Positions 3,162 through 61,729 of a stretch of 64,000 bases of DNA are shown here, in pieces. Positions within the stretch are counted from its first letter, which is position 1, and each line of letters starts with the position of its first letter. The notes beneath the pieces were generated by a model. It was given only the letters and a program-made list of their open reading frames with translations. It ran no database searches and was not told the origin of the DNA. A program made the position numbers and the translations under genes. Source of the stretch: a virus; the IMG/VR virus record IMGVR_UViG_3300020421_002402, positions 46,194 through 110,193 of that record; one strand, 5' to 3'.

Positions 3162-3183
3162 AACCCCCTGTTTTGGGGGTTTT
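3162..3183 (+). terminator. Intrinsic terminator
   Basis: AACCCCC/GGGGGTT stem followed by T tract. Confidence 0.7.
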
Positions 3184-3241
3184 GTACATTAACAGGATAG
3201 TTTATGTAATCAGTATTGTTTAATTGGTTACGAAAATACGA

Positions 3242-3247
3242 TAAATA
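3242..3247 (+). promoter_or_regulatory. T4-late-like promoter box, 5 nt before ATG (leaderless)
   Basis: TAAATA-ttggt-ATG with no SD. Confidence 0.55.
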
Positions 3248-3252
3248 TTGGT

Positions 3253-4668
3253 ATGCTATTCGGTATATTCACATTAATAACAGCCTTAGCCATTGCCGGA
3301 GTTGCGGCATGGTTTTCCATTGAAGGACTAATGGCAATTTTCAGTGCCTCAGCACTTCCTATTGCAATAATGGCTGGAACACTTGAAGTTGGTAAGTTAC
3401 TTACTGCAAGTTGGCTGTATAGATATTGGCATGAAACTTCATTGCTATTAAAAACATACTTGTCCATAGCCGTGGTTGTTTTGATGTTAATCACAAGTAT
3501 GGGTATCTTTGGATATCTATCTAAAGCACACTTGGACCAAGCAGGTGAAACAGGTGATGCTTTTGCAACAGTAGAAAGAATAGATGGACAAATACAAAGA
3601 GAAGAAAACAAAATTGCACTACTCGAAGATAGAATATTAGGAGTAGGTGGTAGTATAGATGTTTCCGAAAGTATTAAACAACAAGAAGAAATAAGAGATG
3701 GTGCTTGGGCAAGAGTTCAAGGTGATATAGATTATGCAAATGGTCAAATAGATAGATTAAGAGACCAACTAGCAGTATTAGACAAAGCAGTAAATGACCT
3801 TAGAGAGAAAGGTGTTGAAGTTGTAACACTAGATGAAGGTGGTGCTTTTAGACAAGCAGAAACTGAAAAGATTGATTATGTAGCACAGGCAAATGAATTA
3901 TTTGCACAACAAAAAGAACAACGAGACGAAATTAGAGCAGATATACAAGTTCAACAAGACAACATTGACAAGTATAGAGCACAGGCACAGAAAACAATTG
4001 ATGATGCCAATGCTGAAATTAATAAATTAAGAAATCAAAACAGCAGTCAACAAGATGAAAACATCATAAAGATAGATGAATACAATACACAAATTGATAG
4101 TATATTTGATAATATTGTAATATTAAAAGATGAAAAGTTTGAAGCAGAAAGTATTGTACGAAACTTAGAAAAAGAAGTAGGTCCTATTAAGTATGTTGCA
4201 CAATTAATATATGGCGACGATACAGAAAGTTATTTGGATCAAGCAGTAAGACTGTTTATTTTAATGCTAGTGTTTGTATTCGATCCACTAGCAGTTGTAT
4301 TAATCATAGCCGCTAACCAAACATTATTACGTTATGGCATTAACTTGGAAAAAACAGGACCTGATTTAAGAGACCAATTAAAAGACGATAGTCCTCCAGA
4401 TTTACCAAGACAACCTAGTCCACCAAGTGCGGTTGATGATGCGGCAGATGTTATGTCAGGTTATAAACAACCTGCACCTATAATTGTAGAAAAAGAAGTT
4501 ATCAAAGAAGTACCAGTAGAAGTCATTAAGGAAGTAGAAAAAGAAGTTGTTGTTGAAAAAGAAGTTGAAGCAGAAATAGATTTGAGTACACCTCCTGCTA
4601 TTAAAGAATTGGAAAAACGACTAGCAAAGAAACTGAAAAAAGATGGCAAAAAAGAAGATAACAGTTAA
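3253..4668 (+). CDS. Membrane protein with long coiled coil and V/E/K-rich tail
   Basis: N-terminal TM helices, central coiled coil, TM segment FILMLVFVFDPLAV, VEKEV repeats. Confidence 0.8.
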   Translation: MLFGIFTLITALAIAGVAAWFSIEGLMAIFSASALPIAIMAGTLEVGKLLTASWLYRYWHETSLLLKTYLSIAVVVLMLITSMGIFGYLSKAHLDQAGETGDAFATVERIDGQIQREENKIALLEDRILGVGGSIDVSESIKQQEEIRDGAWARVQGDIDYANGQIDRLRDQLAVLDKAVNDLREKGVEVVTLDEGGAFRQAETEKIDYVAQANELFAQQKEQRDEIRADIQVQQDNIDKYRAQAQKTIDDANAEINKLRNQNSSQQDENIIKIDEYNTQIDSIFDNIVILKDEKFEAESIVRNLEKEVGPIKYVAQLIYGDDTESYLDQAVRLFILMLVFVFDPLAVVLIIAANQTLLRYGINLEKTGPDLRDQLKDDSPPDLPRQPSPPSAVDDAADVMSGYKQPAPIIVEKEVIKEVPVEVIKEVEKEVVVEKEVEAEIDLSTPPAIKELEKRLAKKLKKDGKKEDNS

Positions 4669-5425
4669 AGAAGCATTAAATGTATTAAATACAAAGTATG
4701 CTAACACATTAGAAATGTTAGATGATGCTTTGGATCAAATAGAAGATTTAGAAAACGAACTGGCTAAAAAGCCTAAGGAAGTGCAAGTTGAGGTCGAAAA
4801 GGTTGTCACAGTTGAGAAGGAGATCCTTGTCCCAGAGGAGAAGTTGGTCACTATCGAAAAGGAGGTCCCAGGACCAGAACGAGTTGTCGAAGTGCCAGGA
4901 CCAGAACGAGTCGTCGAAGTCCCCGTCGAAGTAATTAAGGAAGTAGAAGTTATAAAAGAGGTAGAAGTGCCTGTTGAAGTTCCTGTTGAAAAGATAGTGG
5001 AAAAGATAGTTGAAAAAGAAATTAAAATAGAAGTACCTGTAGAAAAAGTTGTAGAAAAACTTATACAAGGTCCTGAAAGAGTTGTTGTAAGAACTGACAA
5101 TAGAGAAATAGACAGACTTACAGCCTTAGTAGCAGAGTTAGAAAATAGATTAGAACAGAGACCTATCAAAGAAAAAATTGTTGAAGGTCCTAGACGTGCA
5201 GTCAGAGTAGAACTACCAAACACCGGTGACCTCAGGACTGCGGCAACACTTATAGCAAATAGTGAAATGAATATAAATGATTTATCCACAGATGAAATAC
5301 TCAGTATGTTGCAAGAATTAAGTGAAGAAGATGTAAATAAACAGTTGGGAGGTTTTTGGGCAGTCCCATTACCAAACGATACAGATGACGACACAACAGA
5401 CACAAACTATGTTACGAGGAAATAA
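4643..5425 (+). CDS. V/E/K/P low-complexity repeat protein
   Basis: Repeated VEVPVEKIVEK and VPGPERVVE units. Confidence 0.8.
   Translation: MAKKKITVKEALNVLNTKYANTLEMLDDALDQIEDLENELAKKPKEVQVEVEKVVTVEKEILVPEEKLVTIEKEVPGPERVVEVPGPERVVEVPVEVIKEVEVIKEVEVPVEVPVEKIVEKIVEKEIKIEVPVEKVVEKLIQGPERVVVRTDNREIDRLTALVAELENRLEQRPIKEKIVEGPRRAVRVELPNTGDLRTAATLIANSEMNINDLSTDEILSMLQELSEEDVNKQLGGFWAVPLPNDTDDDTTDTNYVTRK
4865..4930 (+). repeat. 27-nt tandem repeat encoding VPGPERVVE
   Basis: gtcccaggaccagaacgagttgtcgaa / gtgccaggaccagaacgagtcgtcgaa. Confidence 0.8.
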
Positions 5426-6693
5426 TGCCCGGTGATAAAGAACACGAACAAAATCTAAGTTGTAGTTTTTGTGGAAAAAAGCGAACTGAAGTAAAAAAGT
5501 TAATCGCTGGACCTAATTCATACATTTGTAATGAATGTATCAATATTAGTCACAAAATTATTAATGAAGAAGATTCATTAGAAGATTTAACCTTCGAAGA
5601 TATACCAACACCAGAAGAAATCAAAGCACACCTTGATGACTATGTTATTAGTCAAGAATATGCAAAAGAAATTTTGTCAGTCTGTGCATACAATCATTAC
5701 AAAACAATTTACAACGACAGTGATACTCATATAGAAAAAAGTAACATTGTTATATTAGGTAATACAGGAACAGGTAAAACACTTTTAGCAAAAACATTAG
5801 CAGAAAAATTAAGTGTACCTTTTGCAATAGCAGATGCAACAACATTAACTGAAGCAGGATATGTTGGCGAAGATGTTGAAAGCATGTTAGAGAGATTACT
5901 TAATATGTGTGATTGGAATTTAGAATTAGCACAAAAAGGTATAGTGTTTATAGATGAGATAGATAAAAAGGCTCGTAAGGGCGAGTCTAACACCGGCACA
6001 AAGGATATAAGTGGGCAAGGTGTACAACAAGCACTTTTAAGACTAATAGAAGGTACAGTAGTTAAAGTATCTTCAAATGGTTCAAAACGTATGGATCAAT
6101 ACGTTGAATTTGATACTACTAATGTACTTTTTATATGTAGTGGTGCATTTGTGGGATTAGAAAAACAAGTAAACACAAAAGCAAACAAAAAGAATATTGG
6201 ATTCAACAAACAATTAAAAACACCAGCAAAGAAAAATACATGGCAACACAAAGTAGAGCATGACGATTTAATCACGTATGGTCTTATCCCTGAACTGGTT
6301 GGTAGATTACCAAACATAGTTCCTTTAGAACCTTTAACACAATCTGATATGAAAACAATTTTGAAATCATCAAAAGCAAGTGTATTACCACAAGTTAAAA
6401 AACTTATGGAGTTCGATGATATACAACTAGAATTTAATGATGAGTATATAGATGACATTGCCAAAATGGCTAGTAAAACAAAAACTGGTGCTAGGGGATT
6501 GAAATCTATAGTAGAAAACAGTTTACATAATATAATGTTTAGGGCACCTAAACTAAAAGAAAATGGAGTTAAAACCGTACGTTTCAACAAATACCCTACA
6601 AAAGATGTTGACACTTACCCTGTTTTCATATATACTAACGGTAATGAAAAATCAGATAATGATTATAAAATAAAAATTAGAGGTAAAAGTTGA
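5425..6693 (+). CDS. clpX: Clp protease ATPase subunit ClpX
   Basis: CSFC..C..C zinc domain, GNTGTGKT, FIDEIDK, IGF loop, GARGL. Confidence 0.95.
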   Translation: MPGDKEHEQNLSCSFCGKKRTEVKKLIAGPNSYICNECINISHKIINEEDSLEDLTFEDIPTPEEIKAHLDDYVISQEYAKEILSVCAYNHYKTIYNDSDTHIEKSNIVILGNTGTGKTLLAKTLAEKLSVPFAIADATTLTEAGYVGEDVESMLERLLNMCDWNLELAQKGIVFIDEIDKKARKGESNTGTKDISGQGVQQALLRLIEGTVVKVSSNGSKRMDQYVEFDTTNVLFICSGAFVGLEKQVNTKANKKNIGFNKQLKTPAKKNTWQHKVEHDDLITYGLIPELVGRLPNIVPLEPLTQSDMKTILKSSKASVLPQVKKLMEFDDIQLEFNDEYIDDIAKMASKTKTGARGLKSIVENSLHNIMFRAPKLKENGVKTVRFNKYPTKDVDTYPVFIYTNGNEKSDNDYKIKIRGKS

Positions 6694-7118
6694 ACAACAA
6701 ATCACAAGGCAGACAACAAAGTCGAAAAATGACTCAGGGTTGGAATTCTCAAAAGAGAAAAGAGCAACCTAAAAAACCACAACACTATTTAGATAAATTT
6801 AGTGGGACCGTAGAAGTACGAAACAACGACGTAAATAAGGCATTGAGAGTTTTGAAAAAGAGATTGGAAAAAGCAGAATTTCAGAAAGAATTGGCGAAGC
6901 AACAATATTACGAAAAGCCTAGTGCAAAAAGAAATCGTAAAAAGAAGCAAGCCAAGAAGAGATGGGACAAGTATGTTAGAGAAGCCGAAGCAAGAGGTGA
7001 TTTTAAACAATACATGCCCACTGGTTCAAAATGGATGAAGTCCAAACGTAAAACAAGGCGAGTAAGAGAATACAACGAAAGGATAGCCGCCATGCAGAGA
7101 AGTCGTGGTAACTTCTAA
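6690..7118 (+). CDS. rpsU: 30S ribosomal protein bS21 with N- and C-terminal extensions
   Basis: VEVRNNDVNKALRVLKK...YYEKPSAKR core within a 142-aa ORF. Confidence 0.85.
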   Translation: MNNKSQGRQQSRKMTQGWNSQKRKEQPKKPQHYLDKFSGTVEVRNNDVNKALRVLKKRLEKAEFQKELAKQQYYEKPSAKRNRKKKQAKKRWDKYVREAEARGDFKQYMPTGSKWMKSKRKTRRVREYNERIAAMQRSRGNF

Positions 7119-7888
7119 TGAGAGTGGTAGTCGTCAGTGGTGGTTTTGATCCACTGCATTCTGGACATATAGACTACTTAGAAGGAGCAAAACAATTAGG
7201 TGATAAACTAGTTGTAGCACTTAACAGTGATGAATGGCTCACAAGAAAAAAAGGCAGGCCCTTTATGCCTTTCGAAGAGAGGGCAAGAATTCTAGAAACA
7301 ATGGACATGGTAGATAATGTTTGGGGTTTCGATGATAAAGACGGCTCAGCAGTTGTGGCTCTGGAAAATGCCAAGAAGGCATATGAACACGCAGAAATTA
7401 TCTTTTGCAACGGAGGTGATAGAACAAAAGATAACATTCCAGAAATGATTGTTGAAGGCGTTGAATTTGTGTTTGGTGTTGGAGGTTCCAACAAATCAAA
7501 CAGTAGCAGTTGGATACTAAAGGAATGGCAATATCCAACTACTAGAAGAGTTTGGGGCGAATTTAGTGATTTGTTCCAAGATGAAGTAGTTAAAGTAAAG
7601 GAGTTGATAATTGAACCAGGGAAAGGTATAAGTTATCAACGGCACTTTAAAAGAAGTGAAATTTGGTTTGTCAGTAAAGGAGAATGCGAAGTAAAGTATA
7701 GTGCTAGTAATCCAGACAACTTTACAAATATAATTCTTAAACAAGATGATAACTTTCATGTAAAAGCAAATGAATGGCATCAAATTGTTAATAGAACTGA
7801 TAAGCCATGTCACATAATTGAAATACAATATGGCGATGAGACCAGTGAAGATGACATAGAACGTCTTCAATATTACAACGGAGAATAA
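7118..7888 (+). CDS. Cytidylyltransferase (RfaE/TagD-like) fused to a mannose-6-P-isomerase-type cupin
   Basis: SGGFDPLHSGH, NGGDR, SSSWIL, then RVWG..KVKEL..SYQRHFKRSEIW. Confidence 0.85.
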   Translation: MRVVVVSGGFDPLHSGHIDYLEGAKQLGDKLVVALNSDEWLTRKKGRPFMPFEERARILETMDMVDNVWGFDDKDGSAVVALENAKKAYEHAEIIFCNGGDRTKDNIPEMIVEGVEFVFGVGGSNKSNSSSWILKEWQYPTTRRVWGEFSDLFQDEVVKVKELIIEPGKGISYQRHFKRSEIWFVSKGECEVKYSASNPDNFTNIILKQDDNFHVKANEWHQIVNRTDKPCHIIEIQYGDETSEDDIERLQYYNGE

Positions 7889-8328
7889 TGGAATTGAAAG
7901 AATTAAACCAGGGCAGAGCATGTGAGATACTTAATTCTATAGTAGAATATGAAATGGCTGGAGTTGTTAGATACGCACACAGTTCGTTAATGATTACAGG
8001 ACCTTATAGGATTCCTATTGTTACATTTTTACAAGAACAAGCAAACGAAAGTCTAGCACATGCCTTACAAGCCGGAGAACTAATTACGGGCTTAGACGGG
8101 CATCCTAGTCAAGTTATAGCACCAATTGAAGAATCACATGACCATAGTATTGTTCAAATACTTCAAGAAAGTTTAGAACATGAAACTCATGCAGTAAATT
8201 TATATAAAGAATTACTTTCTGAAGTAGAAGGTGCAAGTATATATTTAGAAGAATATGCTAGAGGGCAAATTGGACAAGAAGAACAACACGCATTAGAAAT
8301 CAAAAAGATGTTAAAGGACTTTGCATGA
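7888..8328 (+). CDS. Bacterioferritin/ferritin-like protein
   Basis: E...Y and ExxH pairs (ESLAHA, EEQHA) of a four-helix di-iron bundle. Confidence 0.8.
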   Translation: MELKELNQGRACEILNSIVEYEMAGVVRYAHSSLMITGPYRIPIVTFLQEQANESLAHALQAGELITGLDGHPSQVIAPIEESHDHSIVQILQESLEHETHAVNLYKELLSEVEGASIYLEEYARGQIGQEEQHALEIKKMLKDFA

Positions 8329-8771
8329 GACTCAGTTATAAAGATTGTGGCAAAATAGGATTTACATGTAGTACATTCGATTTGCTACATGCAGGACACA
8401 TCACAATGCTTGAAGAAGCAAAAAGACATTGTGATTTTTTGATAGTAGGATTGCAAACAGATCCTACAATAGACAGACCAGAAAATAAAAATCCGCCAGT
8501 ACAAAGTTTAATAGAAAGACAAATACAGTTGGCGGCTGTAAAATATGTAGATGAAATAGTATGTTATGCAACAGAACAAGATTTAGAGGATTTACTTTTA
8601 ACACTTCCTATAAATGTGAGAGTGTTAGGAGTTGAATACAAAGATAAACAATTCACTGGTAAGCAAATTTGCAAAGACAGGAATATTAAATTAGTATTCA
8701 ATGGCAGAGACCATAGTTTTAGCAGTACCAGTCTCAGACAGAGAGTTGCAGAGCATGAAAAATCTACTTAG
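8325..8771 (+). CDS. Glycerol-3-phosphate cytidylyltransferase-like protein
   Basis: STFDLLHAGH, VKYVDE, SSTSLR. Confidence 0.85.
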   Translation: MRLSYKDCGKIGFTCSTFDLLHAGHITMLEEAKRHCDFLIVGLQTDPTIDRPENKNPPVQSLIERQIQLAAVKYVDEIVCYATEQDLEDLLLTLPINVRVLGVEYKDKQFTGKQICKDRNIKLVFNGRDHSFSSTSLRQRVAEHEKST

Positions 8772-9180
8772 ATTATTAGAAAGGTTTGATAGAAAACGAA
8801 TTATATTGGACCGAATACACCAAGAACCATATCTAACTAGGTATTATCTATTCCTAAAAGATAGAAAATGGTTTCCTTTTAACTTTTTCCTACATAATTT
8901 TCATAAAGGTGATCCAGATGACCTACATGACCACCCTTGGAGTTATTTCACAATCATACTAAAAGGTGGATATTGGGAACATACACCCAAAGGAAAATTT
9001 TGGCGTAAAGCAGGAAGTATGAGATTTGCTGGTAGTAAGTCATTACACCGTATAGAATTAGAGCCTAATGTTGATGTTTGGACATTATTCTTTGTAGGAC
9101 CACGTGTTAGAGAATGGGGTTTTATCAAGAAAAACAAGTGGATACATAATGAGACGTATTTATTGTCAAAAAAAGGTTGA
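8755..9180 (+). CDS. Cupin-fold protein (HDHPW family)
   Basis: LHDHPW..IILKGGYWE..HRIEL. Second ATG preferred as start. Confidence 0.75.
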   Translation: MKNLLRLLERFDRKRIILDRIHQEPYLTRYYLFLKDRKWFPFNFFLHNFHKGDPDDLHDHPWSYFTIILKGGYWEHTPKGKFWRKAGSMRFAGSKSLHRIELEPNVDVWTLFFVGPRVREWGFIKKNKWIHNETYLLSKKG

Positions 9181-9204
9181 CATTGATACTAAAAGAAGTA
9201 TAAT
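9177..9204 (+). promoter_or_regulatory. sigma70-type promoter
   Basis: TTGACA-16-TATAAT. Confidence 0.7.
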
Positions 9205-9549: not shown

Positions 9550-9578
9550 AAAAGCACACCTTCGGGTGTGCTTTTTTT
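9550..9578 (+). terminator. Intrinsic terminator with UUCG tetraloop
   Basis: AAAAGCACACC-TTCG-GGTGTGCTTTTTTT. Confidence 0.9.
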
Positions 9579-9907: not shown

Positions 9908-9936
9908 TTGACATATATTCCTACTTTGTGTATAAT
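9908..9936 (+). promoter_or_regulatory. sigma70-type promoter
   Basis: TTGACA-17-TATAAT. Confidence 0.8.
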
Positions 9937-11738: not shown

Positions 11739-12179
11739 ATGAATAAGCAAATCCGATTCACTACCGAATCACTTTCCCCACTATATAAAATGTCCGTAGG
11801 CTTTGACAGACTTGCAGAGCAGTTTTTTAACGATCCTACGTTCACTAATAACGCAACAGGGTATCCACCCTTTAACATCAGCAAAGGCAAAGATGACATT
11901 TATGAAATTACTTTAGCCGTTGCAGGTTTTAAGAAAGATGACATCGAAATTGAAATTGAAGATGGTACTTTGAAAATATCAGGTACATCTGCAGTATTAG
12001 ATTCAGATGAAATCGAATATCTTCACAAAGGTATTGCTGAAAGAAACTTTACTAGAACATTCAAACTAGCAGAGTTTGTAGAAGTAAAATCAGCAAAACT
12101 AGAAGATGGTATTTTAAGAGTTTCATTATACAGGAACGTACCTGAAGCAATGAAACCACAAAAGATTAAAATATCATAA
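11739..12179 (+). CDS. Small heat-shock protein Hsp20/IbpA
   Basis: GYPPFNI, LAVAGF, YLHKGIAERNF, LEDGIL. Confidence 0.95.
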   Translation: MNKQIRFTTESLSPLYKMSVGFDRLAEQFFNDPTFTNNATGYPPFNISKGKDDIYEITLAVAGFKKDDIEIEIEDGTLKISGTSAVLDSDEIEYLHKGIAERNFTRTFKLAEFVEVKSAKLEDGILRVSLYRNVPEAMKPQKIKIS

Positions 12180-12197
12180 TCCTTGCGGTAAATATGT

Positions 12198-12224
12198 GGG
12201 TAGCAGTATTTTCTGCTACCCTTT
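12198..12224 (+). terminator. Hairpin/terminator after hsp20
   Basis: GGGTAGCAG/CTGCTACCC followed by TTT. Confidence 0.6.
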
Positions 12225-12230
12225 ATTATT

Positions 12231-12434
12231 ATGGCAAAGAAAGACAAAAGAAAAACATTATTGTATTTGATTCCAGAAGGTGAGACTAGAGATAGTCACA
12301 CATATCATTATACATTTGTCAAAACAAAAAACTTGACAATTGATAATAAGAAGTTAAAATTAAAGAAGTATAATCCAGTCAAAAGAAAACACGAATGGTT
12401 TATAGAGGCTAAGTTACCACCACATAGTAAATAA
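12231..12434 (+). CDS. rpmG: 50S ribosomal protein bL33 (Cys-free type)
   Basis: MAKK...Y.Y...K.K......KLKLKKYNPVKRKHEWFIEAK. Confidence 0.85.
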   Translation: MAKKDKRKTLLYLIPEGETRDSHTYHYTFVKTKNLTIDNKKLKLKKYNPVKRKHEWFIEAKLPPHSK

Positions 12435-12435
12435 T

Positions 12436-12738
12436 ATGACAGAACAAGTTGAACAAAAGACTAGAACTAATGTAGGATTAAAATACCCACCAAGGTATGA
12501 TGTTATTATTTTTAATGACGATTTTACTCCAGTAGAGTTTGTAATAAAACTACTAGTGGAAATATTTAATAAAAATTTAAAGTCTGCAAAAGACTTAACA
12601 TTAGAAGTTCATGAGTCGGGCTCAGCAGTTGCTGGAACATATTCACATGAAATTGCAGAACAAAAATGTGGAGAAGCAATCACTGTTTCCAGAGGACAAG
12701 GACATCCTTTGCAACTTAAAGTCAACAAGGTTGAGTAA
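12436..12738 (+). CDS. clpS: N-end-rule adaptor ClpS
   Basis: [34 protein letters not shown]. Confidence 0.93.
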
Positions 12739-25530: not shown

Positions 25531-25557
25531 TAAACAAAATCATTCATAAATATCTGT

Positions 25558-26772
25558 ATGAAACTCGCTATCACTGGAGTGGGTATTGTCTCGCCTTTAG
25601 GCAATAGTCTCTCTGAAAACATACAAAATTTAAAGGCTTTACAAGTTCCTATTCAGGATTATAGACCACAAGGTCATTTTAGTGATTGGATTTTAAATGT
25701 TGAAAAAGCATTTCACACTAATTATGAAGATGTGGATTTAGAAGGTTTAATTGAACCTAAAAATAAACGTTGGTTAGATCCTACTGTTGTTACAAGCATG
25801 ATTGCTGTAAATGAAGCAGTAGAAATGAGCGGCTTAGATTTTCCTGATGATACACCAGTTTTTGTAGGCACCATAAGAGGTGGTGCACCAAACTTAGCAA
25901 GGTATGGACAAATACTGCATCAAAATAAACGTAAAGTACACCCCCAAATTTTATTAAGTAGTTCACATGAATACGTCAGTAATCATGTTAGCAGTCATTA
26001 CAAATGGCATGGTGCTAGTATGGGTACAAGTGGTACATGTATTAGTGGAGTACAAGCATTAGACCTTGCCAAAAAGTATATGATGACAGAAGGTTATACT
26101 TGTGCTGTTGTAGGTGCAACAGACTTTATGACTAGTTCAATGAGTACTATATACTTTCAACTATTAGGTGCAATTAGTCCAACAGGTAGAAGTGTACCTT
26201 GGGACGAAAGTAGAGATGGTTTTGTAATGGGCGAAGGTACAGTTTATCTGGTAGTTGAGCCTTTAGAACTTGCTAGGGAGAGAGGAGCAAATATCAGATG
26301 GGTAGTAGATGGTATCGGGATAGCGAACGATGGTGCCCATGCTACCCAACCTGATTTGGAAGGCACTGGTGCCAGGATTGCTATTGATAAAGCATTATCA
26401 CAAGCAGGCACCAGTGCTGTAGATTATACTGTATTGAATGCTCATGCTACTAGTACACCATTTGGTGACCCTGTAGAGTATAACGTGTTGAAAGATTACT
26501 TTCCAGAGGGAAGTCACTTGTATGGAAACAAAAGTCAAGTGGGCCATTTAATGGGTGCTAGTGGATTAGCAGAAGTAGTGTTAGGTGCAGAAGCAATGAA
26601 GCAAGGATTTGTTCCTGCAAATGCAAATTTAGTGAAACCATTTACAGAAGATGGTTATTTTAATTTATTGTCTCAAATAGAAGAAAAAGAATACACAAGG
26701 CTGTTTAAAACTAGTTTTGGATTTGGTGGTAGAAGTGCCGCAGTGAGTGTAGTAGATGAAAGAGAAGTTTAA
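25558..26772 (+). CDS. Beta-ketoacyl-ACP synthase (FabF/FabB-like)
   Basis: ITGVGIVSPLG, Cys-His-His triad (GTCISG, NAHATST, GHLMGA), SFGFGG. Confidence 0.9.
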   Translation: MKLAITGVGIVSPLGNSLSENIQNLKALQVPIQDYRPQGHFSDWILNVEKAFHTNYEDVDLEGLIEPKNKRWLDPTVVTSMIAVNEAVEMSGLDFPDDTPVFVGTIRGGAPNLARYGQILHQNKRKVHPQILLSSSHEYVSNHVSSHYKWHGASMGTSGTCISGVQALDLAKKYMMTEGYTCAVVGATDFMTSSMSTIYFQLLGAISPTGRSVPWDESRDGFVMGEGTVYLVVEPLELARERGANIRWVVDGIGIANDGAHATQPDLEGTGARIAIDKALSQAGTSAVDYTVLNAHATSTPFGDPVEYNVLKDYFPEGSHLYGNKSQVGHLMGASGLAEVVLGAEAMKQGFVPANANLVKPFTEDGYFNLLSQIEEKEYTRLFKTSFGFGGRSAAVSVVDEREV

Positions 26773-40634: not shown

Positions 40635-41255
40635 ATGAATTTTGTACCATATGTAATAGAAAAGACGTCAGCAGGAGAACGTAGTTATGATATCTACAGT
40701 AGACTGCTCAAAGAAAGAATTGTATTCTTAAATGGAGAAGTAACGGACCCAGTATCAAATAGTATCTGTGCCCAATTACTTTTCTTAGAAGCAGAGGATC
40801 CAAATGCTGATATCAGTTTTTACATTAACTCACCAGGAGGTGCAGTCACTAGTGGAATGGCTATGTATGATACCATGCAGTACATACAACCAGACATTTC
40901 TACTATCGTAATGGGACAGGCGGCATCAATGGGAAGTCTACTTGCTCAAGCAGGTACCAAAGGTAAAAGATTCTTATTGCCTAAAAGCAGGACTATGATA
41001 CATCAACCGTTAGGTGGTGCAAATGGTCAGGCTAGTGATGTGATAATTCGAGCCAGAGAGTTGGAAAGAATTAAAACAGAATTGACAGAAATATACGTCA
41101 AGCACAACAGTAAAGGCAAAACTTTTGAAGAGTTTGAACTTGCTATGGATAGAGATAACTTTATGACTAGCGAAGAAGCACTGGAGTTCGGTCTTGCTGA
41201 CGAAATCATTGAGAAGAGGAGTGACGAAGGTGCAAGTAAAGAAGGTACAACTTAA
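40635..41255 (+). CDS. clpP: Clp protease proteolytic subunit
   Basis: [23 protein letters not shown] (Ser), MIHQP (His), RDNFM (Asp). Confidence 0.97.
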
Positions 41256-57629: not shown

Positions 57630-58436
57630 ATGGATCATTATCAAACATTAGGTGTATCACCACAAGCAGACGAAAAGGAAATTAAGAAAGCCTATCGTAG
57701 ACTTGCGGGTAAACATCATCCAGATAAAGGCGGAGATGAAAATGAATTTAAGAAAATACAAAAAGCATACGAAACTCTTAGCAATCCTGAAAAACGCCAG
57801 CAATACGATAATCCAAACCCATTCGAAGGCGGCGACCCATTTAGTCAAGGTGGCTTCAACTTTAGGGGAGACTTTGGAGATGTATTCCAAGACATATTTG
57901 GGAGAGGATTCCAACAAAGACAGCCAACGAGGAACCCAGACGGAGTAGTTGATTTACATTTAGAACTGCATGAAGTATATCATGGCACAGAAAAAATGAT
58001 AAACACAGGCTACGGCACATTTAAAATAACAATACCTGCAGGAACTAGACATGGCACTAAATTTAATATGCATGGTAAAGGACCTGTGGAACATCAAGGA
58101 CTGCCACCTGGAGACCTTATAGTTAGATGCTTTGTACACAGTCCACCTGAATGGGATAGACGTAATGACGATTTATATATCAGAGTACAAGTAGATTACT
58201 TAGAAGCAATAGCAGGTACTGAAGTTAGAATCACTCAGTTAGATAATAGACAGTTAGATATAAAGATTCCTAAATTAACAAACCCAGGATCACAACTCAA
58301 ATTGCAAGGTAAAGGTATGCCTAATCCACAGAATGGTAGGGTAGGAAATCTCATAGTAGTAGTGGAAGTTGTTAGTCCAAACTTAACAGATGAACAGATT
58401 TCAAGAATACAAGATATTAAAAACAACAAAGAGTAA
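57630..58436 (+). CDS. Class B DnaJ (CbpA-like, no Zn finger)
   Basis: J-domain with HPD, G/F region, C-terminal DnaJ domain. Confidence 0.92.
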   Translation: MDHYQTLGVSPQADEKEIKKAYRRLAGKHHPDKGGDENEFKKIQKAYETLSNPEKRQQYDNPNPFEGGDPFSQGGFNFRGDFGDVFQDIFGRGFQQRQPTRNPDGVVDLHLELHEVYHGTEKMINTGYGTFKITIPAGTRHGTKFNMHGKGPVEHQGLPPGDLIVRCFVHSPPEWDRRNDDLYIRVQVDYLEAIAGTEVRITQLDNRQLDIKIPKLTNPGSQLKLQGKGMPNPQNGRVGNLIVVVEVVSPNLTDEQISRIQDIKNNKE

Positions 58437-58444
58437 ATATTAGT

Positions 58445-60643
58445 ATGAGTAATGTAGATAATGTAATAGAATGTGCAATTGAATATGCTGAGGACAGACA
58501 GCATGAATATGTCACTGTTGAACACTTAATGTTATGCCTATTAGAGAATGAAGAAATCATAGAAATAGTAGATAATATTACAGGCGACAGGGAAGTTGCT
58601 ATTAATGATTTGCGAAACTATTTAGACGACAAGGATTATAATGGACTTGTGGGAGAAACTCCTTGGGATGGTAAGCCTAAGAAAACTACAAGTGTAGAAC
58701 GAGTAATGCAACGAGCATTTGCACAAGTTATCTTTAGTGCTAGAGACCAAATAAATCCAGTTGATATATTTGTGAGTATTTTATCTGAGGATAAATCACA
58801 TGCACAATACTACTGTGAACTAAATGGTATAAACAGATTAGCAGTTGTTGAGTATATTACTAAGCATGTTTCTACAGTACAAAGTTTAAAAGAAGCAGAA
58901 GAGTTTTTAATAAATCTAAATGAAAGAGCGGCACAAAGCGAAATAGATCCTTTAATAGGAAGACAAGATGAGGTTGACGATGTTGTTCACATACTTGCTA
59001 GACGTAAAAAGAATAATCCATTACTAATAGGTGAACCTGGTGTAGGTAAAACTGCAATAGCAGAAGGACTTGCATTAAAGATTGTAGAAGGGCAAGTACC
59101 TAATGCATTAAAAGAAAAGATTGTGTACAGTTTAGACGTAGGTGGATTACTTGCAGGAACTAGATACAGAGGAGACTTTGAAGAACGTATTAAAGTAGTG
59201 CTAGACAGTTTAGAAAAGAATAAAAATGTAATACTGTTCATAGATGAAATACATATGATTATGGGTGCCGGTAGTGCTGGCGGCAGTAGTGTAGACATAG
59301 CAAACTTAATGAAACCAATATTGGGTAGAGGTAAGTTATTAACTATGGGTGCAACAACTAGCGATGAATATAGCACACATTTTGAAAAGGATAGAGCATT
59401 AATGCGTAGGTTCCAAAGAGTAGAAGTAGAGCCTACTGATGTTGAAACAACAACAGAAATTGTAAAAGGATTACAACCTTACTTCGAAGAATTTCATCAA
59501 GTCAGTTACGAGGTTGACTTGTTAGAAAAAAGTGTTGACTTAGCACATAGATATATCAAGAACAAATACTTTCCAGACAAAGCAGTTGACGTGATGGATG
59601 CCGCAGGTGCTAAAACAAAACTAAGAGGAGAGCAAACTGTTCTAATGGATGATGTACTTTCTGTTATTAGTAAGATGAGCAACATAGGAAAAGATGTAAT
59701 TGATATTGATAGCACCGAAGGTTATAAAAGTTTAGATAAAAGAATTAAAACAAAAGTGTTTGGACAAGATGATGCAGTGGATCAAATTGTAGAAGCAATA
59801 CTTGTTAGCAAGTCTGGTTTAAGAGAGCCTAACAAGCCTATTGGTTCTTTCCTACTATTAGGTCCTACTGGTACAGGTAAAACTGAAACAGCCAAACAGT
59901 TAGCAGAACAATTAGAAAGTAAACTGATACGTTTTGATATGAGTGAGTATCAAGAAAGACATAGTGTCAGTAAACTAATTGGAGCACCTCCTGGTTACGT
60001 TGGACATGCCGAAGGTAAAATGGGTCAAGGTCAACTACTTACAAGTGTTGAAGACAATCCTAATTGCGTACTTCTATTAGATGAGGTTGAAAAAGCCGCA
60101 CCAGAAGTACTACAGGTATTATTACAAGTGATGGACGATGGACGATTAACAGGTGCTACAGGTAAAACAACTGATTTTACCAATGTAGTTTTACTCATGA
60201 CAAGTAACCTAGGAGCCTCTGATGCTGAGAAACTTAAGATTGGTTTTGGTAAAAACATCAAAGAGAATGTAGATGTTAAAGCAGTACAAAGTTTCTTTAC
60301 TCCAGAGTTTAGAAATAGAATAGATGCAGTTATTAAATTTAACAAGTTAAGCACAGAAGTAATACAAAAAATTGTTAAACGACTTGAAGATGAGATTAAC
60401 GAGCAACTTAAAGATAAAAACATTGTAATTAAATTAGACAGCGATACTGTAAATTATTTTGTAGAGAATGGCTATGAACCTTCAATGGGTGCTAGACCGT
60501 TAAAAAGATTGTTTGAAGGAGACCTTAAGAAACCTTTGAGTAAGAAAATATTGTTTGAAGACTTAAAAAACGTAACAGTAAATGTAAAAATAATAGATGG
60601 AACGATTAACATTGAAAGCACTGAACAAAAAGAACAAGTATAA
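58445..60643 (+). CDS. clpA: Clp protease ATPase subunit ClpA
   Basis: HEYVTVEHL N-domain, two AAA modules (GEPGVGKT, GPTGTGKT), no M-domain, IGF loop. Confidence 0.93.
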   Translation: MSNVDNVIECAIEYAEDRQHEYVTVEHLMLCLLENEEIIEIVDNITGDREVAINDLRNYLDDKDYNGLVGETPWDGKPKKTTSVERVMQRAFAQVIFSARDQINPVDIFVSILSEDKSHAQYYCELNGINRLAVVEYITKHVSTVQSLKEAEEFLINLNERAAQSEIDPLIGRQDEVDDVVHILARRKKNNPLLIGEPGVGKTAIAEGLALKIVEGQVPNALKEKIVYSLDVGGLLAGTRYRGDFEERIKVVLDSLEKNKNVILFIDEIHMIMGAGSAGGSSVDIANLMKPILGRGKLLTMGATTSDEYSTHFEKDRALMRRFQRVEVEPTDVETTTEIVKGLQPYFEEFHQVSYEVDLLEKSVDLAHRYIKNKYFPDKAVDVMDAAGAKTKLRGEQTVLMDDVLSVISKMSNIGKDVIDIDSTEGYKSLDKRIKTKVFGQDDAVDQIVEAILVSKSGLREPNKPIGSFLLLGPTGTGKTETAKQLAEQLESKLIRFDMSEYQERHSVSKLIGAPPGYVGHAEGKMGQGQLLTSVEDNPNCVLLLDEVEKAAPEVLQVLLQVMDDGRLTGATGKTTDFTNVVLLMTSNLGASDAEKLKIGFGKNIKENVDVKAVQSFFTPEFRNRIDAVIKFNKLSTEVIQKIVKRLEDEINEQLKDKNIVIKLDSDTVNYFVENGYEPSMGARPLKRLFEGDLKKPLSKKILFEDLKNVTVNVKIIDGTINIESTEQKEQV

Positions 60644-61298: not shown

Positions 61299-61315
61299 AA
61301 GCGATAAATACAAGT

Positions 61316-61729
61316 ATGAGCATCAATCGAAAATCAATTTTAATGCAGAGTTCAACAGGCTCTACTATGTCTTTGACTACAAATAATGTAGAAGGAGATA
61401 GTTATTATGGATACTCAGATGGTATTCACACCATAGCAGTATCATACAATTCATTTAAAGGTAGAGTAAGTGTACAAGGAACTTTAGCATTAACACCCAC
61501 AGACGCAGACTTCTTTGATATACAAATACCAGGTGGATTAACTGCCGCAGGCGGTGGATATAAACAGTTTCCAACCACAGGGACTTCAGGATTTACTGGA
61601 GTAGAAGCATATACTATCACAGGCAACTTTACATACTTAAGAATTAAGATAGATAGAAGTCATTTAGGCGATGGTACTACATACGATTCTGCGTATGGTT
61701 CTATAAACTACATTAGATTATCAGCATAA
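61316..61729 (+). CDS. Putative virion structural protein
   Basis: GDSYYG.SDG.HT, QGTL...P, GNFTYLR. TAAATA-5nt-ATG. Confidence 0.6.
   Translation: MSINRKSILMQSSTGSTMSLTTNNVEGDSYYGYSDGIHTIAVSYNSFKGRVSVQGTLALTPTDADFFDIQIPGGLTAAGGGYKQFPTTGTSGFTGVEAYTITGNFTYLRIKIDRSHLGDGTTYDSAYGSINYIRLSA

Follow-up and report, generated by a model that had tools for sequence, protein, structure and literature searches.

A doubly extended bS21 encoded directly behind clpX in a lineage of uncultured marine jumbo phages

The DNA analyzed here is a 64,000-nucleotide (nt) stretch (hereafter the window) that forms the last 64 kb of the 110,193-bp IMG/VR virus record IMGVR_UViG_3300020421_002402, and the gene in question encodes a relative of the ribosomal protein bS21 with an extension at each end. 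This doubly extended bS21 is specific to one lineage, a large group of uncultured marine jumbo phages whose genomes measure ~270–340 kb. Our overall reading, to which we assign a probability of about 60%, is that the protein would take the site of host bS21 on the ribosome, that its two arms would anchor it there, and that it may bias initiation of translation. The record is 31% complete, implying a genome of ~350 kb (CheckV). The window has a GC content of ~35% and almost every gene is on the plus strand. A megablast search for the region found no match among deposited phages.

Profile matches and a shared sequence signature indicate that the protein is almost certainly a true bS21 homologue. 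Residues 40–91 match Pfam PF01165 Ribosomal_S21 (E = 2.7e-14; 53 bits against a cut-off of 27), residues 40–94 match TIGR00030 (54 bits against a cut-off of 28.95), and residues 41–102 match phrog_21469 (E = 1.9e-13). The core carries the motif YYEKPS-x-KR-x-RKK...A-x-KR, with the (Y/F)(Y/F)EKP(S/T) turn and a basic second helix as in bS21, and the signature YEKPS...KR...A-x-KR is common to the phage protein and ribosome-bound bS21. When the family profile is compared with chains in the Protein Data Bank (PDB), amino acids (aa) 39–100 align to residues 3–65 of the 71-aa bS21 of Acinetobacter, Pseudomonas, and Escherichia coli, so the phage protein has ~39 extra N-terminal residues and 37–48 extra C-terminal residues, depending on the comparator. 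The initial annotation of this DNA had described a bS21 of about twice normal length with a core flanked on both sides. The length is confirmed (142 aa vs. 51–88 aa for bS21 chains in solved structures), as are the tail letters it quoted, which are present in the translation, and its estimate of ~45 extra C-terminal residues lies within our range; the N-terminal extension is likewise real, with a count closer to 39 than to the ~35 proposed. The whole protein has a net charge of +30 and an isoelectric point (pI) of 10.8.

The gene is tightly packed between its neighbors: its TTG overlaps the stop codon of clpX (TTGA) and its TAA overlaps the downstream ATG (TAATG). In all related loci, the aligned position holds a TTG, GTG, or ATG that is preceded by the same (A)GAGG, whereas an internal ATG at 6729 is not conserved. 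Because both the start codon and the Shine–Dalgarno (SD) sequence are conserved across loci, we take the TTG at 6690 to be the true start. The reading frame is not due to chance, given 164 homologous clusters and a ratio of nonsynonymous to synonymous substitution (dN/dS) below 1 in all three segments of the protein. Coordinates of features are collected in table 1.

Table 1. Features of the window (window coordinates; cells are empty where no value was assigned).
Feature	Position	Strand	Remarks
Long bS21 gene	6690..7118	+	142 aa; TTG start; TAA stop
SD sequence AGAGG	6679..6683	+	6 nt before TTG, within last clpX codons
N-terminal extension, aa 1–39	6690..6806	+	Asn/Gln/Lys/Arg-rich; net charge +8
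bS21 core, aa 40–102	6807..6995	+	Two helices; Pfam, TIGRFAM, and PHROG matches
C-terminal tail, aa 103–142	6996..7115	+	Net charge +9; pI 11.4
Sigma-70-type promoter-like site, TTGACA-17-TATACT	6608..6636	+	11/12 matches; inside clpX
Phage clpX	5425..6693	+	C4 zinc finger and AAA+ domain (Pfam); GYVG and IGF motifs
Cytidylyltransferase-cupin gene (mannose-6-phosphate-isomerase-like)	7118..7888	+	Pfam; conserved downstream neighbor in 43 loci
ATAAATA box	3241..3255	+	5 nt before ATG (3253) of 471-aa membrane protein; without SD
Terminator-like hairpins	3165-3179 and 9550-9575		Bracket the block
Hsp20	11739-12179
bL33-like open reading frame	12189-12434		Pfam 25.9 bits vs. cut-off 25; profile positions 15–47 alone
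ClpS	12436-12738
ClpP	40635-41255		Pfam 259 bits
Lon-like protease	58445-60643		phrog_4871, E = 1e-241

Both extensions are conserved features of the family. We used three alignments, A1 (n = 21 sequences), A2 (the tail alone, n = 19), and the wider A3 (n = 34). The N-terminal extension holds 10 Lys or Arg and three aromatic residues and has a semi-conserved motif, [FYW]N-x-[KR]; in A1, N19 is invariant and P27 nearly so. The tail consists of G103-D-F, a Pro/Gly linker, a basic motif, and a 21-residue amphipathic basic helix (aa 119–139), and its consensus reads G-[DE]-[FMWA], a Pro/Gly-rich linker, K-[WFHY]-[ML]-K-[SG]-K-R-K-x-R-[RK], and a basic helix ending in R-x-G-x. Seven tail residues (G103, K117, K119, R120, K121, R123, and R137) are invariant in A1, where identities fall to 42%. 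In A3, K117 alone is strictly invariant and the other positions are at least 90% conserved. A word-indexed search returned the 164 homologous clusters, of which the best 120 listed are nearly all 132–143 aa in length, and the homologues sit on contigs of up to 337 kb in Tara, JGI, ENA, and Logan marine data. Pairwise dN/dS values are 0.03–0.12 for the core, mostly 0.10–0.19 for the tail, and 0.11–0.5 for the N-terminal extension. Judged by these ratios, all three segments are under purifying selection. Conservation in relatives was one of the points on which the initial annotation had allowed its interpretation to fail, and the extensions recur in relatives down to ~42% identity with dN/dS below 1.

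An AlphaFold2 (AF2) model built on a 34-sequence alignment places core helices at aa 48–72 and 77–102 and a tail helix at aa 119–139, the last with a predicted local distance difference test score (pLDDT) of 85–91. The N-terminal extension is modeled at low confidence (pLDDT of 51–62) and is therefore probably disordered when free.

Within the databases searched, the tail-bearing form is found in viral sequence only. A scan of IMG/VR identified 232 viral stretches that encode a relative; 80 of these loci were kept for comparison and the tail is present in 45. Among 185,579 prokaryote species, represented by one genome each, only four loci were found, two of them tailed (L082 and L083). The latter were deposited as Chitinophagales and Gammaproteobacteria sequence of metagenome-assembled genomes (MAGs), and both carry clpX, the long bS21, and the cytidylyltransferase gene in succession; since this is the phage gene order, we consider them phage contigs that were binned into MAGs. 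Two MAGs (G001 and G003) have an ordinary S21 beside a phage-type S21, and in a third (G002), both S21 matches are on phage-like contigs. An exhaustive hidden Markov model (HMM) search yielded 4,693 S21 clusters at 50% identity, of which ~25 are tailed. The nearest ESM Atlas clusters are 98–100% viral.

Viral S21 proteins in the kept loci have one of three architectures: plain (67–69 aa), with an N-terminal extension only (75–94 aa), or with both extensions (125–145 aa). Those with only the N-terminal extension show the same Asn-rich [FY]N-x-K pattern, and the number of residues following EKPS is strictly bimodal, at either 24–27 or 59–66. This series and its bimodal lengths suggest that the N-terminal extension is older and more widespread and that the tail is the mark of one lineage. 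The tree of the core, which has 63 columns and is poorly resolved, gathers 32 of the 33 long forms and the group with a short N-terminal extension on the same side, clearly apart from three cellular sequences (support of 99/97). The remaining long form, L028, is outside the main group. On this core tree, a single origin of the tail is neither rejected (approximately unbiased test, p-AU = 0.37) nor demonstrated.

The tail also coincides with a particular chromosomal neighborhood. In all 33 distinct tailed loci that were scored, a clpX homologue (48–91% identical) ends at the start of bS21, and in none of 22 tail-less loci is clpX upstream. In one further form (L041/L042), clpX is ~0.65 kb upstream of bS21. 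Other conserved neighbors are a 471-aa membrane protein and a protein of E/K/V/P repeats upstream and, in 31 loci, a ferritin-like gene downstream. Tail-less marine phage loci have the same membrane-protein gene and have hsp20-clpS right after S21. A very distant phage-like contig of 10.9 kb and 53% GC (L098; G002:C81), from a MAG labeled Chitinophagales, combines these arrangements in the order membrane protein, 140-aa open reading frame (ORF), clpX, S21, hsp20, and clpS; its S21 has 86 aa and a different, short tail. The gene order of L098 implies that the pairing of clpX with S21 predates the long tail and, together with the order in tail-less loci, that bS21 is part of an ancient proteostasis block of phages. 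In the window, ~4.6 kb of other genes separate bS21 from hsp20, the bL33-like ORF, and clpS. The initial annotation had grouped bS21 with bL33 and leaderless genes in a ribosome-remodeling module. The bL33 part of that grouping does not hold up well, as the match is borderline, the ORF is 5 kb away, and it occurs in four related loci, where its placement relative to bS21 varies; the conserved partner of bS21 is clpX.

Two sets of signals could provide for expression of the gene. The sigma-70-type promoter-like site within clpX ends 54 nt before the start of bS21 and has 10–12 of 12 matches both in the window and in each of the 11 distinct close relatives, despite near-saturated silent sites. 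Its −10 element alternates between TATACT and TATAAT among relatives while the encoded residues differ. Promoters scoring 11–12 of 12 are found at other offsets in six further loci. The second possible source is farther upstream. After the hairpin at 3165–3179, the next terminator-like site that follows a gene on the same strand is the one at 9550–9575, with a weak five-pair match at 3294–3309, just within the first gene of the block. The ATAAATA box, 5 nt from an ATG that lacks an SD, makes 3253 a candidate leaderless start, and a transcript from this position could read through clpX and bS21. By reading of upstream sequences, the same arrangement with a spacing of 5–9 nt is present at the first gene in ~29 of 31 tailed loci, and under a stricter rule of 4–7 nt it is present in 21 of 39 loci overall; tail-less loci have a GGAG SD in its place. 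Contigs from RNA libraries (marine, three studies; relatives 90–95% identical) cover the bS21 gene, and one 999-nt piece begins in clpX, covers bS21, and extends into the following gene. A pile-up at 5830–5881 is a short conserved stretch of clpX from other organisms, and uncovered stretches in these contigs carry no evidential weight.

We suggest the following sequence of events. The long bS21 would be made early from the sigma-70-type promoter and again through read-through and translational coupling with clpX. Host bS21 is exchangeable, binds late, and sits between platform and head with its C-terminal helix beside the SD/anti-SD helix (PMC7550191), and its first helix lies over the anti-SD, according to Chen et al. 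(PMC9723584); the phage protein is predicted to replace it in the platform–head cleft of the 30S subunit. The initial annotation had started from much the same background, namely the position of the bS21 C-terminus next to the SD helix (PMC7550191) and sequestration of the anti-SD in Bacteroidetes (PMC7797042), and on both points the literature agrees. In E. coli, the bS21 chain closes with RLY, residues that pack against h37 and stack onto A1167 (Watson et al. 2020, PMC7550191), and the phage core, at G103-D-F, would end at this same place at the base of the head. From the alignment of G103-D-F105 to the RLY end, we infer that the linker and basic helix project into the chamber of the mRNA exit and SD helix, while the N-terminal extension would originate at the helix that covers the anti-SD. 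Both basic arms would add contacts to ribosomal RNA (rRNA) or mRNA. A first effect may be that the phage protein outcompetes host bS21; a second and less certain effect may be that initiation is biased toward phage messages. The basic motif is conserved across phages that have diverged to ~50% identity in ClpX, which points to a conserved target such as rRNA, and such a target favors arms that act first as extra anchors to win the site.

Several observations weigh against this reading or soften its support. The strong upstream promoter is not present in ~13 related loci, and the RNA-library contigs may include carried-over DNA. The tight linkage to clpX could be inherited synteny without functional meaning. 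The best cellular match to the core is 43–46% identical (300 sampled genomes of one MAG's phylum). The AF2 monomer carries no information on the RNA-bound state. Fold searches with Foldseek and VIA-align were uninformative, with weak matches to mitochondrial bS21m (E of ~0.3; Z of 2.1–2.5) and a match to an unrelated helical hairpin (Z of 2.8).

An alternative, proposed by the initial annotation, is that the extensions act as a switch between SD-led and leaderless initiation, repositioning or covering the anti-SD to favor leaderless phage messages. The premise that leaderless-looking genes exist is sound. Four ATGs without an SD follow (A/G)TAAATA by 5 nt (3241–3255, 25546–25560, 58433–58447, and 61304–61318) and open ORFs of 471, 404, 732, and 137 aa, respectively; the box is an exact ATAAATA at 3253, 25558, and 61316 and the variant GTAAATA at 58445. 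The bare count of four for TAAATA-N5-ATG is not above that of shuffled sequences (mean of 2.4; 23 of 100 shuffles reach four). We nevertheless give it weight because all four open long SD-less ORFs and relatives keep the arrangement at 3253. The window has 20 copies of ATAAATA on the plus strand and 4 on the minus strand, placed either 19–46 nt upstream of starts with an SD or, where the start has none, exactly 5 nt upstream. We take the box to resemble the −10 element of T4-like late promoters, TATAAATA. With a spacing of 5 nt, transcription would begin at or beside the AUG, and ATAAATA has the appearance of a late promoter of the T4 type from which leaderless messages would also be transcribed.

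We nonetheless regard such a switch as unlikely. In its favor, loss of bS21, which supports the anti-SD, eases translation of leaderless lambda cI (PMC10491246), bS21 of Bacteroidetes helps hide the anti-SD (PMC7797042), and SD-less ATAAATA-N5-ATG genes are not only present but conserved in arrangement at the first gene of the clpX–bS21 block. However, the bS21 gene itself is SD-led, and an SD-like motif stands before 43 of the 81 crude ORF calls, compared with 22% of random positions. The ATAAATA box is shared by SD-led and SD-less genes and, as it also stands 19–46 nt before the former, promoter type does not separate the two classes. The charge of the protein also speaks against a switch. 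Bacteroidetes bS21, which helps sequester the anti-SD, has a less basic C-terminal domain and a signature Tyr54 that, with Ile55, stacks on A1534 (Jha et al. 2020, PMC7797042). The C-terminal domain of the phage protein is not of this less basic type but is strongly basic, like that of SD-using bacteria (aa 79–142 have a net charge of +18 and a pI of 11.4; aa 79–105, the part equivalent to E. coli, have a pI of 10.7). Positions +12/+13 after KPS are K90-R91, as in a gammaproteobacterial bS21, and the nearest aromatic residues are W92 and Y95, in a register that was set against that gammaproteobacterial sequence.

The constant presence of clpX raises a different role, in which the extensions serve the phage ClpX, either as a docking handle or degron through which phage ClpXP would control the amount of free phage bS21 or as part of an exchange device, with ClpXP removing host bS21 and the tailed protein filling its place. 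The codons of clpX and bS21 overlap or abut in the 33 tailed loci, compared with none of the 22 tail-less loci, clpX also precedes S21, followed by hsp20-clpS, on the distant 53% GC contig L098, and genes for ClpP, ClpS, and Lon are present in the phage as well. A phage-encoded protease directed at host bS21 was raised as a speculation by McNutt et al. (PMC9976891). On the other hand, the linkage may reflect one inherited gene order, the core tree does not reject a monophyletic group of long forms (p-AU = 0.37), the clpX-linked S21 of L098 has a different and short tail, and the promoter that bS21 has to itself in many relatives uncouples it from clpX. We therefore consider a role of the extensions in serving ClpX decidedly unlikely. 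A combined scheme, in which ClpX and the tailed bS21 are produced together from their overlapping genes, ClpXP strips or degrades host bS21, the tailed bS21 locks into the vacated site by means of its two basic arms, and the resulting 30S subunits serve both SD-led and leaderless-type messages as a form of ribosome conversion, is in our estimation very unlikely.

Exaptation of S21 as a general basic nucleic-acid binder outside the ribosome, such as an RNA chaperone or a phage DNA- or RNA-bound protein, would fit the high charge and pI of the protein and the fact that its extensions have no identifiable relatives in Pfam, NCBIfam, PDB, or the ESM Atlas, but is highly improbable because the core is the most constrained segment (dN/dS of 0.03–0.12), and it also keeps the YEKPS...KR...A-x-KR signature and scores well over family cut-offs. 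By the title of a paper (PMC12054373), OLE RNA is said to be a non-ribosomal partner of bS21. Replacement of host bS21 by a more firmly anchored phage protein remains the reading that we prefer.

Searches for the source of the tail gave no support to the candidates tried. The tail alone (A2) had no meaningful match in Pfam, NCBIfam, or PDB, where the best was a single-member match with E of 0.02–0.03, and no usable neighbor in the ESM Atlas. Fusion to a peptide like bS22, bTHX, or bL34 is unsupported by these searches. Duplication of core helix 2 is likewise unsupported, as hhalign aligned 7 columns (SAKRKRK vs. SKRKRRK) with a probability of 4%. Capture from a small neighboring gene was also rejected: an HMM of the tail, searched against six-frame translations of the kept loci, matched the long bS21 alone.

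Other genes of the window show features of their own. Upstream of clpX, 4643–5425 encodes a 260-aa protein that consists mostly of E/K/V/P repeats (VEVPGPERVV, EKIVEK...) and lacks a Pfam match; the gene overlaps the one preceding it and is directly upstream of clpX in 42 loci. Downstream of bS21, in 7118–8771, two cytidylyltransferase-like genes, one of them the fusion to a cupin/mannose-6-phosphate-isomerase domain, flank the ferritin-like gene, and the first two genes of this trio are conserved across the lineage. Perfect sigma-70 promoters (12/12; TTGACA-16/17-TATAAT) are found at 9177–9204 and 9908–9936, before a 99-aa ORF (9223) and a porin-like gene (10013), respectively. The pair suggests that some genes form a class transcribed by the RNA polymerase of the host. 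The phage set of proteolysis genes is complete, with ClpX, ClpS, ClpP, and the Lon-like protease, and Hsp20 is encoded besides.

To our knowledge, viruses carry no other ribosomal protein nearly as often as bS21, and we know of no demonstration of the role of a phage copy during infection. The family described here is a natural gain-of-structure variant, with an ordinary core and two separable, conserved basic arms. It is present in hundreds of ocean contigs, fixed beside a phage unfoldase gene and often equipped with its own host-type promoter. It could show whether phage bS21 outcompetes the host protein, alters mRNA choice, or both. If the link to clpX is functional, this would be the first phage pairing of a protease machine with a replacement ribosomal protein, so far a matter of speculation (PMC9976891).

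Phages of other lineages also carry bS21. In the available text of Chen et al. (2022, PMC9723584), freshwater Bacteroidetes phages of up to 331 kb carry bS21 proteins whose C-termini diverge from those of the host and are conserved within phage clades. Their gene is near terL, on the reverse strand, and expressed late, and the aromatic residue of the Bacteroidetes Tyr54 type is kept; that text does not mention clpX or state that bS21 is long. By comparison, the C-terminal domain of the jumbo-phage protein is very basic and the gene has a host-type promoter in many relatives. Relative to the gamma- and betaproteobacterial bS21 with RLY or KLY ends described by Watson et al. (2020), alignment of the core extends across the full 71 aa and G103-D-F105 corresponds to the RLY end. 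The phage motif there is G-[DE]-[FMWA] rather than R/K-L-Y, and the chain runs 37 residues further to ...RSRGNF.

The best match among deposited phage genomes is bS21 of Pelagibacter phage HTVC008M (57% identity over aa 37–78), a protein that enters 70S ribosomes of E. coli (Mizuno et al. 2019, PMC6375957). Tail-less marine relatives of HTVC008M and the phage of the window have in common a membrane-protein gene upstream and, close by, hsp20-clpS. Unlike the long bS21, that of HTVC008M has 67 aa and lacks the N-terminal extension, the tail, and an upstream clpX. The N-terminal extension of phage S21 is already known: as far as the available text of Al-Shayeb et al. (2020, PMC7162821) goes, rpS21 of huge phages has basic and aromatic N-terminal extensions, like aa 1–39 here, for which a role in competitive binding or in preferential initiation was proposed. 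In the searchable literature, we came across neither the conserved basic tail of 40 residues nor the constant clpX–bS21 pairing, and the tail seems undescribed. Where the main text of Al-Shayeb et al. describes N-terminal extensions only, the protein reported here has in addition a 40-residue tail with a KWMKSKRKxRR motif and a helix, and its gene has a fixed place after clpX in a lineage of marine jumbo phages.

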